Source: Octopus vulgaris
Taxonomy: Eukaryota
Assembly: GCA_951406725.2 (NCBI GenBank)
Contig: OX597835.1
Coordinates: forward strand, 8,990,001-9,054,000
Length of the DNA stretch: 64,000 nucleotides
Direction of reading: 5' to 3'
Numbering within the stretch: position 1 is the stretch's first letter; each line of letters begins with the position of its first letter. Under the pieces are notes generated by a model. That model did no database searches, had not been told where the DNA came from, and worked only from the letters and a program-made list of their open reading frames with translations. Of the stretch, positions 1,615 through 61,768 are shown piece by piece. A program made the translations under genes and the position numbers.

Positions 1615-1740
1615 TGATGATTTCTTTTGAATGAAACAGTTCTAGTCCTGTAGAAGGTCCTTCTATAAAATAAATTAATTTACTCTGCTATGTATTGAGT
1701 ACCTTATTTACTGTGGTTAACCCCGACTCAACCCGTGACC
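1615..1740 (+). mobile_element. Penelope-like pLTR/retrozyme fragment with 5'-truncated hammerhead
   Basis: Lies between two (TA)n tracts; homologous to 33375-33503; reads (C)TGATGA-tttc tttt gaat-GAAACAG ttctagtc CTGT-A. Confidence 0.7.
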
Positions 1741-1851
1741 TACATATATATATATATATATATATATATGAAGAGAGAGAGAGACAGAGAGACAGAGAGA
1801 CAGAGAGAGAAATACCGCAAAGGACTTCGCCCGGCGTGCTGCCGTTTCTTC

Positions 1852-2054
1852 CATCACACGTTGCTCCAGTCCACTCAGCTGGCAGAAAATGCGAAGTAAC
1901 TGTATTTCAAAGAGCTGGCATTGTCTCACTTTGCGCCACGCCGAATCTCCCTGAGAACTACTTTGAGGGTACACGTGTGCAGTCACTTACACGTTAATTT
2001 CACGGGCAAGCTGTTCAGCTGGGACCCTCGTCGTCGTAACCGACGGATTGCTCC
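1852..2054 (+). mobile_element. 5'-truncated CORE-type SINE, family B (OR2-like)
   Basis: CACGTTGCTCCAGTCCACTCAGCTGGC followed by the 3' tail shared with family A (…GTCGTAACCGACGGA). Confidence 0.8.
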
Positions 2055-4679
2055 TTTAATACACCGAATTCTGTGAAAGTTTTATTTCATTAAATTATCG
2101 TAAATATTTAATCTCTTCATATTATATTATTATGGTTATATCTTGATATTCCATGCCAACCATAGTAGCTTCCCTTCGTTTCTGTTTTTAGTATGAATGG
2201 TATAAAGAAAAAACACTGTATAAAAACGTCAGTCATTAGGTGAGAATTTGCGCTATAATCAATTGAACGGGTCAGCTACACAGAACTGTACCAGTTAAAC
2301 ACCCTTAGATATTCATAAGTCTTACAATAGAAGACGATAAAGATTTTTTTCTGAAAACTAGAATCAATCCTTAAGTGACGTACATCTGATTCTCTCCGTT
2401 ATTCATGTGCATGTTTTAGCTTCGCAGCAGTGAGAATACAATTCTTTAAATACAATTGTGTCGTCTTTTAGCTATGCTATACTGCCTCAAGGTTACTCTA
2501 CACATTGCATCCCTCATGAAAGCTAAATTTAATGCTTTCGCAGGAATTCATTAGGGTGGAATCCGTAGATAAACACCAAATTACTGGTATCAGTTCGCAC
2601 CATTTTTATTTTATTCTTTTGGACACAGAAAAATGATGTTCTACTTGAAAACAACAACAAAATTATAATATAAAATGCTTTGCTTAAAGCAATTTTCTAT
2701 TTTTTAGGAATTTAAATTAAGACAGACTCAACTTTACTATTAACTCCGCTGGAAACTACAAAAATCTATAAAAGTGATATCGATATTCAATATCATCGAA
2801 TTTTCCTTTCTGTATGGTAATGTGCAAAGCTCATTATTATAGGTTCCTTTGTGATCAGTGTAGAATACTACACACATTAGTTGTATGTTCCGTGCAACTG
2901 CTGTTGCACATTTATGCTTCTCTTCCTGATTTAGTCTTCATAATTGTAAAGAGATCAGTTGACATACTATTCAAAGAAATGTGTTAAGAATGTAACCGGG
3001 ACTAACTGTTGGCTTCAAGAGACAAAATACAAGCATCTACTTGGTCGCTGAAACTTAGATTGCTATGCCAGGCAAATCACTCTGAAATCTCTACAGAGTG
3101 TTTTGAATAAGATCTCATATTGGGTATTGTTGTAGAAGACCTCAGACAAAGACAGGACGTTCGTAGTCTTGAAGTCTCTGAAAACAGAGCTCTTCCGTCA
3201 GTATTGACTTGCCTTCAGTTTAAAGGCTTTAATGTTGAATGGATGGGAAACAGTAATGCTTAAGAAATATTTAGTAATAGAATGTTGCGCCCCTGTGAGG
3301 TTGTTTGTGCCTAATACTCTATCACAGCTCACCGCAAAGCCAGGATAGCGTTAGAGTATTTTTGCCATGTTAAGCACATCTGCTGGTTCTCGCATTCTCG
3401 TAATGAAATACCAATTCCATTTTAAAAAAGTTACATCTCGTAACATTTCATGAAATAAATATAAATTGAATATGTTGCTGTAAAAGATTAATTTCAGCAG
3501 ATTTGATCGATTCTTTGATTTATTTGTTAATTTGTTGAATATATAAATATATCAACTCTTAATTTATTAACGGGATGAAGGAATAAACGTTTAGATAAAA
3601 AGTTGATGAGAGGATGAAAGCGCAGTACCACAGCAGCCGCTCAAATATATTCTTGTAGCTTTTTTTTTTTTTTTACTTTTTTCATCGATCTGATTCTTTA
3701 CTCTCTCAAACAAAAACGTTGCTACACCGACTCCAAATATATATCTTACAAGTCACTGGTATCAGTCTCTGCATACTAAAATGCAATTAGTAATATTGCA
3801 TGAGTTTACTAAGTTGTTATGACTTACTTTCAATAGTCATTTGTATATTTTTATATATATTTTTATACCAATATCTCTAAAGTTTTCTGTATAAACCTTA
3901 CACGAAAGCAATATTGTGAAACGTTCTTTTTAAGCCCAGAATGAATTTCCGTTCGACGAAATACAAAGACCGCCCATAAAAATGATGAATGTAACAATAA
4001 TAAAGTAAAAATTAAAAGAAAACCAAAATAAATTCTCTTCAAAACCATAGAAAGAAAATAAAGAAAAAAATCATTCATATTACAGGTTTCAAAATTGAAT
4101 ATCGTAAGTAATTAAGTCACTTTTGAACCTATCGCTATTTGGTTTAAGCTAAACAGGGTTTATTATCATTAAATAAAGGCCGGACATTTGCTATTAAGTC
4201 TTTGAAGTAAGTTAATAGGTTTGTCAAAAGAGAAAGCGTTGTTTAAAAATAAGTACCTCCTGTATATAATTAAGGATAAGTTTCAGGTCAGTGTTAAATA
4301 ATTCAAATCACGTAGCAGCGTTCCGAGTAATTGAACCTTCAATCATGTCTCGTCTTTCGTCTGATTTCATGTGCGTCTCTGTTCGTAGAGATAAGAGTGC
4401 GCACACACAAACACACATATATATATATATATTTGCGAAAGTGTGTGCATACACATTTCAATATAATTATATTGGACTTTATGGGAAATATTTCATCTAA
4501 GACAGGGAAATTTACGTTAGGTATAGGAGTATAGCAATATTATATATATATATGCGTGTGTGTGTGTATGAGTATCTGTGTGTGCGTGTGAGTGTTTGTA
4601 TGCGTATATGTATGTATATTTATTTCTATACATGTAAGTAGGTATGCACACCTTCAAATATACACTCGTATACACACAC

Positions 4680-59131: not shown

Positions 59132-61062
59132 GCTTTTCACAATATTTTTTCTTTTAATATTTGTTTTCAAAATGATTTTCATTACTGACGCAGTTTATTT
59201 TGTTTTGTTGGATTCCATTTTCTAACAAATACTGATGTGGCTATTTTGATGTTAGAAATCAACATTCAGCTGTTTGTGTCGATGGATCTATTTGCATTAT
59301 AACTCTCAATTTAAGCTTTTCTTATTTTTCCTGTGCATGTATTGTTGTGCAATTTTATAGCACTCACTCATGTGATGTATGCTTGAACGTGCTCGTTTTA
59401 TTATTTACCAGTGTCGAGGGAAAACATTCGATAATCTTGTAAGCTTATTAATATTGCGATGTCATTGATTTTTTTTCCTGATTTCAGTGAAGAAACGCCC
59501 AGAGTTTTTCAAGTTTTTAGCATAATATTTTATTGGTAATCATTAATATTTTATTATTTGACTTTTTATGATTGATTACGTCCCGTAATGTATGAGATTT
59601 TGGTTGTCACATAACCTCATATTTCGTCTTCACCTATTCAATATTTTAATCCGTTTAGTATCTAGTATAGCCGCAGGATGCGTGTATCTAACACTTCGTT
59701 GTATTGTACACTGAAGCAGCCAATTTTCCTTTTTATAAATTTCCATTATTTTAACGGCTTCTTGTAGAATAATACTCTTCTACTGGGAATTAAAATTGAG
59801 GAACGACAACTCATTTGACGTCCAGATTATATAATGTATACACGATAATTTTCATAAATAATAGGATGAGAGTCATATTCACTATTTGTGTGGTGGATCT
59901 TTTAGATTTTTCTTTTTCCTTCTTTTTGTAAGTTACAGTTAGCCTTGGTTATATGCCCTTGACACATACACAGACACAGGCACATGCCTATATTTTATAT
60001 ACCTTCGTACTTTCTTTGAATAGTGTCCTGTATTTGTATATATTGAGTTTTCCTCTATTGTTGTATTTCGGGATGGCCACCCTATTGTACTTTGTTATCT
60101 TTTCCCAAATAAGCACATGAAGTAGATATATTCGTTCTTCATTCGTTTCTTATTGCCCTAACTCATCCCCATTGCTTGGAAATCTTTCGTCACACATTTG
60201 TGACGTCTTCAACAAAACTTTCCGTGTGTACTCTTGTTCCGCTTAAAAAAATATGTGTGTGTGTATGTACAGAGAAAGGTAGATAATAATAATAATAATA
60301 CATGGTCAGATAGGTAAAGGTACATTGAAGATTGTCCGACAGAATGATACAAAGTTGTCAGTATTGACGGAAATATGCATTGCAGGAAGTTATGTATATT
60401 TAAAAGTTATTTCAATCTAAACAAATGACTTGACAGACAGATACACATTCAGTGTGAGACAGACAGACAGACAAACAAACATGCATAAATTGAAATATAA
60501 ATCTAGGTGGAATATTGTAATTCAATAAAAGATATTTGAATAATTAAAAGAACCTCCTTGACACGAGAGATAATTTCTCTTTACTGCCACTTCATAAACA
60601 TGACTGAAACAAATAAAAGAATTTTAAAAAACCAAAAGAATATTATCGTATATCTCTATTAACATAATTGATATGTATGTGTCAACGTAGTTAAAATTAT
60701 TTAAAAGCTCCGAAGTGTGTATGAGTGTGTGTGCGTGCGTGCGTGAGTGTGTGTGTGTGTGTGCATATATGTGTGTAAGTACATGTGTGTCTCTGTGTGT
60801 GTATGTGTGTGCATGTGCGTGTTTTTGCGATTGCACGTGTGTGTATATATGTGTGTTGGCGTTTCCACGTGTGGGAATTTATTCGGAAGACGTTAAGAAT
60901 ATTTTTTAAAATTTACTCACATTTCCCTTCTATTTTCGTGTACATAAATGTATGAGTATTATATGTTGGTGTACGCACTCAATCACACACACACACACAC
61001 ACACACACACATATATATATATATATATATATATATATATATATATATCTATATATATATAT

Positions 61063-61556
61063 GGATATATTGAGGAGTTGAATGAATTATCTTATTATGG
61101 ATAATTCGGTTAACCGATACCTGGGTAGCAAATTCACGTCAGAAAAACACGGTTGAAGCTACATGCCAAGGGCAGAGATCACGTGCTTTCGTGTGGAAAT
61201 TTGTGTGTTTTTTTTAATACAAATAAATAAAAGAATGGAGTTGAACGACGAATTAACAAAATTCCTTTATTCTCGATATATGTTTCGAAGGCTGCATATT
61301 CCTAATTTCGAAGGAATAAGGGGTACATCATGCCGCCTTCTCATCAGGAAAAACAACGAAGTTATGTCAGCATCAAGATGAACAGAAACTTTTAGATGAC
61401 TGCCCACACGGAGCCCATAGCGATAATGAGTGTTTCTTTAAAATATTCCGTTATAAGCTTATAACGGAATATATACTGCTTATATGCAGCCTTCGAAACA
61501 TATGTCGAGAATAAAGGAATTTTGTTAATTCGTCGTTCAACTCCATTCTTTCCTTT
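61063..61556 (-). mobile_element. Penelope-like pLTR with fold-back inversion between (TA)n tracts
   Basis: Arms 61230-61299 and 61482-61551; perfect 30-bp palindrome at 61443-61472; contains a hammerhead. Confidence 0.8.
61270..61352 (-). ncRNA. Type-I hammerhead ribozyme
   Basis: Minus strand: TTTTC-CTGATGA-GAAGGCGGCAT…ATGCAGCCTTC-GAAAC ATAT ATC-GAGAA; the inverted arm preserves GAAACATATGTC (palindromic ACATATGT, GUC). Confidence 0.8.
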
Positions 61557-61685
61557 ATATATATATATATATATATATATATATATATATATATATATAT
61601 ATATATATATATATATATAAGATAAGAAAATAGACAGGTAATTAATAAAGTATTATTAATTAAACAAAAATAATTGACAAAACTA

Positions 61686-61768
61686 CCTTATAGCTGTTTC
61701 AATTTCAAACCTTCAGAAAATTAATTAATAAAATGAAAAATTACCTGGAAGTCGAATCTCTTCAGAGA
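61686..61768 (-). ncRNA. Type-I hammerhead ribozyme candidate
   Basis: Minus strand: TCT-CTGAAGA-GATT…AATT-GAAAC AGCT ATA-AGG; ~65 bp from (TA)n. Confidence 0.6.

Follow-up and report, generated by a model that had tools for sequence, protein, structure and literature searches.

The hammerhead ribozyme motifs found in a 64,000-nucleotide window of the Octopus vulgaris genome (GenBank assembly GCA_951406725.2, contig OX597835.1, positions 8,990,001 to 9,054,000) very probably mark 5′-truncated ends of Penelope-like retrotransposons (PLEs) inserted by the mechanism proposed below, three of the families (F1, F4, and F5) probably being non-autonomous. The initial annotation had described ten ORF-less inserts from about seven unrelated families as a community of ribozyme mini-elements. 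The families are indeed unrelated (best cross-family BLASTN E-value 0.03), but they number eight. The description as ORF-less holds for the window copies and not for the families, as F2, F3, F6, and F8 lead upstream into PLE coding sequence, of the Hydra type for F3 and F6 and of the Neptune type for F2 and F8. Therefore, the inserts of these four families are 5′-truncated PLE ends and not a separate class of mini-element. A PLE origin is likely for the four families without a shown parent as well, and only F5 resembles a retrozyme.

Each of the ten positions listed in the initial annotation holds either a hammerhead-type motif or what is left of one. A strict descriptor requiring the canonical core passes only the copy at 36304. 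A relaxed descriptor, written after the families had been seen and tolerating U3-A8, C4, U.U at 10.1/11.1, and any base at position 17, passes five of the ten (33383, 36304, 61347, 36806, and 23612) and gives a probable chance hit at 13554. The proposed type I folds stand as motifs or remnants throughout and pass as descriptor matches in half of the copies, the other half carrying damage. An Rfam scan, which had been suggested as a check, listed no hammerhead family among 150 of the 154 window matches at E ≤ 1, all of them microsatellite-driven miRNA noise, and a repeat search of the window was dominated by TA runs. The lack of Rfam hammerheads, the single copy passed by the strict descriptor, and the tuning of the relaxed descriptor on these same families speak for chance matches in AT-rich, microsatellite-rich DNA. 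However, the six relaxed-descriptor matches in the window compare with a mean of 0.07 and a maximum of 1 in 30 local dinucleotide shuffles, and a random genome sample of 700 kb, which contains hammerhead families that played no part in the tuning, yielded 19 matches against about 0.9 in shuffles. Genome-wide, the true patterns have exact matches by the thousand, while reversed control patterns have none. The motif rate clearly exceeds that of shuffled sequence, one of the comparisons by which the initial annotation was to be judged, and chance matching is already refuted, with a practically negligible probability.

At the family level, the stem I–II–III order and the CUGANGA...GAAA...UH core are found in all eight families, and stems that show no sequence relationship across families are nonetheless complementary. 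An alignment of 13 F6-like sequences is 85.9% paired, compared to 36–50% when slid. Covariation within this family is weak: there is a single G-C/A-U switch (in 5 of the 13 sequences), and neither pairs with two-sided changes (216 of 500 shuffles) nor further pair types (469 of 500) rise above the control. A short palindromic stem III, as described initially, is seen for example in F2 (ACGU) and F5 (ACCGGU) but not in F1, whose 4-bp stem III carries an 8-nt loop and is hence not minimal. In folding predictions, each self-dimer has a lower energy than the two separate monomers, but only F1 gives a hammerhead-like dimer, and the dimer folds carry no weight here for that reason. The window motifs are regarded as real hammerhead shapes whose cleavage is a prediction.

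The best preserved copy is an F1 stub at 33371..33503 (+ strand, core at 33383), with a 7-bp stem I, a 4-bp stem III, and a minimum-energy fold that is the hammerhead itself. The other F1 stub (1615..1744, +) lies between (TA)n tracts and is 5′-truncated within the core, lacking C3 and the 5′ arm of stem I. F2, a Neptune-type 3′ end, is represented by a copy with damaged stems at 19822..20021 (+, start approximate, core at 19892) and by a minimal hammerhead with the ACGU palindrome at 36251..36446 (+, core at 36304), which belongs to a minority subfamily with G17, so that G occupies the cleavage position. The F3 stub (23400..24040, −, core at 23612) comprises 640 nt of a Hydra-type 3′ UTR, has U.U at 10.1/11.1, and terminates in (CA)n. 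F4 forms a head-to-head inverted pair at 31252..31481, with a short-tail arm on the − strand (about 31252–31333) and a long-tail arm on the + strand (core at 31343), the latter a C4 variant in which a C-to-G change disrupts stem I. F5 (36555..37085, −, core at 36806, ACCGGU palindrome) spans roughly 1.25 copies of a retrozyme-like repeat whose unit is 429 nt long. The Hydra-type 3′ end of F6 occurs as a long arm at 61062..61458 (−, core at 61347) and an inverted short arm at 61482..61555 (+) that consists of the 3′ half of the hammerhead and a short tail. The F7 stub (61620..62005, −, core at 61765) is older, with about 80% identity to its relatives and a decayed stem I. The F8 stub, a Neptune-type 3′ end (55413..55709, −), has a U3-A8 core at 55556, and this copy has lost A15.1 and duplicated its loop. 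It had been called degenerate at 55513, but its U3-A8 core is the compensatory state of the family, present in every one of the first 100 listed among 2,540 exact matches. Four features were absent from the earlier list: an inverted pair at 10584..10757 containing the 3′ half of a hammerhead from a ninth family, matched by eye to a complete motif at locus L038 (1177–1272); a 3′ tail of the F2 type that lies between TA tracts and lacks a hammerhead (32946..33013, +); a degenerate F3-like hammerhead remnant (55086..55167, +, E 8e-8); and a probable degenerate hammerhead of another family (60174..60216, −) that by eye resembles a match at locus L299.

Extension of the families toward reverse transcriptase (RT) and GIY-YIG endonuclease reading frames, as suggested initially, succeeded for four of the eight: F6 and F8, F2 (RT thumb and endonuclease), and F3 (endonuclease). 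The F6 endonuclease retrieved 25 loci, 24 of which carry the F6 hammerhead, and F6 open frames of 741–833 amino acids contain RT and GIY-YIG. Several F8 loci have an RT (Pfam RVT_1, E 8e-8), a zinc-finger linker, and a GIY-YIG domain upstream of the hammerhead, all coding copies seen being broken by stops or frameshifts. At one of them, L390, hammerheads flank the coding region on both sides and the tail following the upstream hammerhead continues into the coding region. The F2 and F3 links come from one endonuclease-bearing locus each. For F2 (L385), an RT thumb and GIY-YIG are followed by a 1.6-kb UTR, common to two further loci, and then by the hammerhead. The F3 GIY-YIG domain (L125/L169; Pfam E 1.5e-4, narrowly below the curated cut-off) is tied to the window copy through overlapping homology and a short linker match. 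For F7, an RT fragment lies about 130 nt upstream at a single locus, where the intervening stretch lacks an endonuclease, and a non-exhaustive search of loci found no coding parent for F1, F4, or F5. Hammerheads at both ends (pseudo-LTRs) were seen at L390 and in a young 842-amino-acid Hydra-type family (L234), which was rejected as the parent of the window inserts because its hammerhead differs; no direct-orientation pairs were seen for F2, F3, or F6.

Motifs read by eye place these proteins further. The F6 proteins (L229/L230) and the 842-amino-acid protein have RW(K), DKT, CxxC and CxH, and no CCHH; Pfam gave no RT match for the two Hydra-type proteins scanned. The CxCX5C linker is present in the 842-amino-acid family and missing from F6, which has an Asn-rich stretch instead, and F6 is therefore called Hydra-type and not a full clade member. 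F3 shows the endonuclease motifs of the Hydra clade only. Of the Neptune features described by Craig et al. (2021; PMC8557442), namely DKG, a CX2-5CxxC linker finger, and a CCHH GIY-YIG domain, F8 has all three. F2 has the finger, which is CX4CxxC in both families, and CCHH, the DKG region lying outside the truncated copy. The microsatellite bias is shared as well. F2 and F8 are thus Neptune-type by motifs, in a sense that does not separate Neptune from Nematis.

The ends of the inserts have the form expected of PLEs, with variable, truncated 5′ ends, fixed 3′ ends at (TA)n, tails, and shorter-tailed inverted partners placed head to head all observed. F2, F3, and F6 copies show graded 5′ truncation, whereas F1 and F4 copies start at or near the hammerhead, which would fit discrete non-autonomous units. 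The placement of the inserts in or beside TA/TG tracts, as initially noted, was borne out: (TA)n adjoins nine of the ten, and the insert at 23530 ends in (TG/CA)n. In the random sample, 16 of the 19 hits have at least (TA)4 within 260 nt downstream, compared to 24% of random positions. Of 30 F1 long arms, 21 reach TA 93 nt beyond the cleavage site, and of 20 F4 arms, 16 do so at 107–108 nt. The 20 F6 arms fall mainly into two groups, with TA at about 50 nt in 8 and at about 205 nt in 11. Long-arm positions are partly ascertained, since top-ranked loci are skewed toward the query. Inverted partners are present in 33 of 40 scored F1 copies and end 21–31 nt past the cleavage site in all 18 measured. 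The F1 3′ end has 2,602 exact genome matches, with TATA next in 99 of the first 100, and a genome pattern search found eight places at which F1 continues beyond its tail. The corresponding F4 pattern gave 5,282 matches, a count that includes continuations into TA. A two-template origin of F4, suggested by AG in the long arm and AC in the inverted arm of 12 of 14 pairs, was rejected, AG occurring in none of the first 100 genome-wide matches; the asymmetry is a search artefact, as the DNA search retrieved rare mutant copies resembling the query. Because of the same bias, candidate totals from DNA searches were discarded as copy numbers. G17 as the typical F2 state (23 of 24 top hits) was likewise rejected, as just 3 among the first 100 matches genome-wide have it.

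These observations can be accommodated in a single scheme. A PLE endonuclease would probably nick a (TA)n tract, and the reverse transcriptase would begin on the RNA shortly downstream of the hammerhead, usually halting early. Long and short tails may reflect internal priming at two sites, by analogy with published work on an anole PLE. Lying 20–200 nt upstream of the priming sites, the hammerhead would for that reason be copied more often than any other part. Where full elements stand in tandem, cleavage of the precursor RNA by the hammerheads would probably involve dimers formed through the palindromic stem III, perhaps assisted by a protein. Most dispersed single stubs would be inert, decaying copies. 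The same PLE enzymes probably mobilize F1, F4, and F5 as non-autonomous derivatives.

Most inserts could instead be stand-alone, non-autonomous units akin to retrozymes, each undergoing transcription, self-cleavage, circularization, and re-insertion. F5 is the family closest to this description. Its non-coding unit of 428–431 nt is the only one among the eight seen in tandem with a hammerhead in consecutive units (two hammerheads at 2 of 20 loci; three same-strand pairs among the 100 matches listed). Like the non-LTR retrozymes of Cervera and de la Peña (2020; PMC7229834), it combines a few hundred non-coding bases, one type I hammerhead, and both monomers and dimers, although its 429 nt exceed their 200–400-nt monomers. 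F1 and F4, which begin at the hammerhead and have copies in the thousands, and a preprint arguing that retrozymes come from PLE ends (Li et al., 2026) also favor such units. However, four families reach PLE coding sequence, F5 is the smallest counted family with 132 exact matches, no long tandem array was seen for any family, and the 3′ ends lie 20–200 nt beyond the cleavage site and not at it. Independent retrozyme-like units are therefore a very unlikely explanation for most inserts, compared to truncated PLE ends.

A different question is why the motif persists. The two largest counted families have mostly A6U or U4C cores: one has 15,272 exact matches, with A6U in 96 of the first 100, and the other, F2, has 10,692, the first 100 comprising 78 U4C and 22 canonical cores. 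In F4 (6,911 matches), the first 100 comprise 56 canonical and 44 C4 cores. Such numbers suggest that the fold may be kept as a structural signal for a PLE protein, with catalysis dispensable and cores drifting, a possibility compatible with the truncated-PLE explanation. In its favor, ribozyme-dead mutants of the anole Poseidon element PAc are unimpaired in insertion in vitro (Frangieh et al., 2024; PMC11167929), and Naiad PLEs thrive without canonical hammerheads (PMC8557442). On the other hand, the U3-A8 compensation in F8 points to catalytic constraint, G at position 17 is rare in three families (0, 2, and 3 among the first 100 matches of each), position 7 varies freely in the A6U family, and natural U4C and A6C hammerhead variants keep some activity. 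A structural signal as the main reason for persistence thus seems unlikely, though less so than the retrozyme alternative.

The very large and diverse population anticipated by the initial annotation was found, with about 42,000 exact-motif matches genome-wide in addition to the eight unrelated window families. Extrapolation gives 70,000–160,000 copies, or about one per 17–37 kb, and the genome likely holds around 100,000. The suggested density of one per 7 kb is two- to five-fold above this average. By comparison, 2,000–9,000 motifs were reported in Schistosoma, coelacanth, and Xenopus (Cervera and De la Peña, 2014; PMC4209133), and a section heading in the retrozyme literature gives a comparable scale of up to 120,000 for the axolotl.

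Hammerheads in PLEs, the targeting of TA, and a Hydra element from octopus that bears a hammerhead have already been published, and hammerhead-carrying PLE stubs within TA repeats are in this respect an ordinary core finding. The minimal hammerheads of PMC4209133 share the type I fold, the palindromic positions 15.2–16.2, and an extra base between 9 and 10.1. They likewise form numerous unrelated families within one genome, occur for the most part as single motifs of truncated PLEs, and include opposite-strand pairs and a U3-A8 family. The PLE-type hammerheads first proposed are upheld, with coding parents for four of the eight families. F3 and F6 fit the Hydra clade, which includes Hydra-1_Obim of Octopus bimaculoides (PMC8557442), in a C-terminal GIY-YIG domain without CCHH, RW-, DKT, CxxC and CxH around conserved E and N, a canonical hammerhead, (TA)n insertion, and an inverted 5′-truncated partner with a tail. 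The window families differ from Hydra-1_Obim in hammerhead sequence, while the F4 hammerhead resembles by eye the Hydra record just before it. PAc has two internal RT starts downstream of the hammerhead that give a tail, as proposed above for the window families, and shares AT-rich targets (PMC11167929). It belongs to another clade, and its tails differ by 30–40 nt, compared to about 70 nt in F1 and 150 nt in F6. The annotation value is modest, resting on Rfam missing every window copy and on an octopus repeat annotation paper in whose main text the words "ribozyme" and "hammerhead" are absent.

This genome may be among the largest invertebrate ribozyme populations counted, with its most successful families built on A6U or U4C cores under continued hammerhead-like selection, although this is a tentative and, on balance, doubtful proposal. 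The selection is suggested by the diversification of position 7 and the cleavage base after the core change, while G17 stayed rare. A non-exhaustive literature search found no mention of an A6U core among the papers it listed, and families dominated by A6U or U4C are not mentioned in the portions of PMC4209133 used here. If the proposal is true, these cores would be natural protein-rescued or slowed ribozymes. The role of PLE hammerheads is described as unclear in PMC8557442 and PMC11167929, and these families would provide a ready test of whether catalysis aids or hinders transposition. Canonical-core subfamilies and their altered-core sisters each occur in thousands (56:44 in F4 and 22:78 in F2 per first 100 matches), so that copy number, age, and cleavage rate could be compared directly in a natural experiment.

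The hammerhead motifs are real. At all ten sites in the window that the initial annotation had named, a hammerhead motif or motif remnant was found. No Rfam hammerhead family appeared among the 150 listed of 154 window matches, and a strict descriptor accepted one of the ten sites. A relaxed descriptor, which was composed after the families had been inspected, accepted five of the ten together with one likely chance match, whereas 30 local shuffles averaged 0.07. A random genome sample (10-kb stretches of contigs 1–29, drawn using lower-bound lengths; 70 of the 80 drawn were used) served as the independent test. 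It gave 19 matches versus 0–2 in each of eight shuffles (mean about 0.9), confirming a motif rate above that of shuffled sequence, and several of the 19 represented previously unseen families. Covariation within families was weak.

Genome searches with each insert defined eight repeat families (F1–F8, inserts named by window start) rather than the "about seven" first proposed: F1 (1615 and 33376), F2 (19888 and 36300), F3 (23530), F4 (31339), F5 (36741), F6 (61270), F7 (61686), and F8 (55513). As had been suspected, they are mutually unrelated, with no significant nucleotide similarity to one another. Stem III is palindromic or near-palindromic in every family. Among top matches, the canonical core was present in 30/30 for F1, 19/20 for F3, and 20/20 for both F5 and F6; for F7, it was found in 13 of the 14 copies matched out of 15. 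The F8 core carries U3-A8, a covariation already described as active in PMC4209133, and F1 and F3 share a U·U pair at 10.1/11.1 that also occurs in natural hammerheads.

Exact-motif searches covered the whole 2.8-Gb genome (227 contigs), and the reversed control gave zero for each pattern. They returned 2,602 matches for the F1 tail, 10,692 for the F2-type motif, 1,360 for F3, 6,911 for F4, 132 for F5, 2,559 for F6, 2,540 for F8, and 15,272 for a further minimal-hammerhead family with no copy in the window (examples at genome loci L256, L272, L275, and L293), a sum of 42,068 without F7. Extrapolation from the random sample suggested about 76,000 descriptor-intact motifs (95% range 46,000–119,000), with about 5% chance matches still included. 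The 41 intact and degenerate sites combined correspond to about 164,000 genome-wide (118,000–222,000), or one per 17 kb, and the one per 7 kb initially put forward does not hold as a genome rate. The ten sites in 64 kb exceed this rate (Poisson p ~0.005), though the window was scrutinised more closely than the sample.

Core variants were counted by hand in the first 100 listed matches per motif, all at the start of contig 1, and the conservation of the other core positions is by construction, as these are fixed by the search patterns. The F2-type motif had C4 in 78 of its 100, and part of the 22 U4 copies may reflect CpG decay. For F4, C4 was present in 44, the rest being mostly one homogeneous canonical subfamily. 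The 15,272-copy family, the largest, had U6 in 96 of its first 100 (position 7 in these: U 41, A 25, C 19, G 11) and G17, at the cleavage position, in two. Published natural U4C and A6C variants are slower, yet not dead; minimal hammerheads are reportedly impaired by G17.

The association with TA tracts was upheld: at least four TA units lay within 260 nt downstream of 16 of the 19 random-sample matches versus 24.1% of 20,000 random positions (p ~7e-7, inverted pairs counted once). The window itself is microsatellite-rich, such runs making up 4.2% of it. Head-to-head partners with a shorter tail occur often; of 40 F1 copies scored, 33 had one. Long arms end a fixed distance past the cleavage site, at (TA)n, with TATA directly following 99 of the first 100 of the 2,602 exact F1 ends, while F1 short arms end 21–31 nt past it (18 measured). 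This pattern matches the signature of Penelope-like elements (PLEs) published in PMC8557442, and by analogy would match internal priming at two sites as described in PMC11167929. At L008, L030, L320, L362, and L367, stubs from different families sit together within or close to a single TA tract, and F6 and F7 stubs occupy a common tract at window 61062–62005.

Walking upstream tied four of the eight families (F2, F3, F6, and F8) to PLE coding sequence. The proposed extension to reverse transcriptase (RT) and GIY-YIG frames succeeded in part: frames are open in F6, broken in F8, and partial in F2 and F3, and the loci examined yielded no established coding parent for F1, F4, F5, or F7. The F6 hammerhead is present in 24 of 25 loci found with the F6 endonuclease, mostly about 550–600 nt downstream, and F6 frames of 741, 833, 804, and 713 aa contain RT and GIY-YIG. 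The F6 protein shares 34% identity with the 842-aa protein of a young Hydra-type family (L232:4816–7341, minus strand; also L233, L234, and L235), which has all Hydra-clade motifs when read against PMC8557442. That family has hammerheads at both ends, intact RT and GIY-YIG frames, and top copies 97–100% identical; it is possibly still active. In several F8 loci, the upstream sequence contains an RT that is broken but has the DKG motif, together with a CX4CxxC finger and a CCHH endonuclease, and L390 has a hammerhead on both sides of the coding region. The F2 and F3 links come from one locus each: for F2, L385 encodes an RT thumb, finger, and CCHH endonuclease, followed by a 1.6-kb UTR common to two other loci; for F3, a Hydra-type endonuclease is joined to the window copy via overlapping homology. 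A Pfam search missed the Hydra-type RTs. The body of F7 (about 2 kb) is non-coding, and its one RT neighbour is ambiguous. Copies of F1 and F4 start at the hammerhead, and F5 is a 429-nt unit, tandem in some places.

Other repeats were also seen. A head-to-head inverted repeat with arms of about 160 nt (window 62081–62403) lies just upstream of the F7 stub, and no hammerhead was recognised in it. A second inverted repeat, with arms of about 130 nt (20039–20311), adjoins the TA tract ending the 19888 insert and is either MITE-like or a PLE pair without hammerhead. A 188-nt unit is repeated 13.8 times in tandem, at 99% identity, at 45696–48277, and the hammerhead descriptor had no match there. 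The window also contains a common interspersed repeat as two 230-nt inverted copies, 97% complementary (49095–49790), a short imperfect palindrome of 68 nt (26385–26452), and fragments at 9451–9888 and 12853–13290 that we take to resemble a LINE ORF and a mariner-type transposase. The L046:338–709 fragment resembles the thumb of another PLE type, putatively Naiad-like; Pfam gave no support.

In PMC4209133, PLE minimal hammerheads are widespread single motifs from truncated elements, and PMC8557442 has Hydra elements inserting into (TA)n and lists Hydra-1_Obim with its hammerhead for Octopus bimaculoides. Cleavage as dimers is described in a review, and PLEs are reported as abundant cephalopod repeats. 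No genome-wide count appeared among the papers listed for octopus, PLEs, and hammerheads combined. Collectively, the window families are new examples of a known and well-explained phenomenon; a specialist might be surprised only by how large it is and by how far altered cores dominate.
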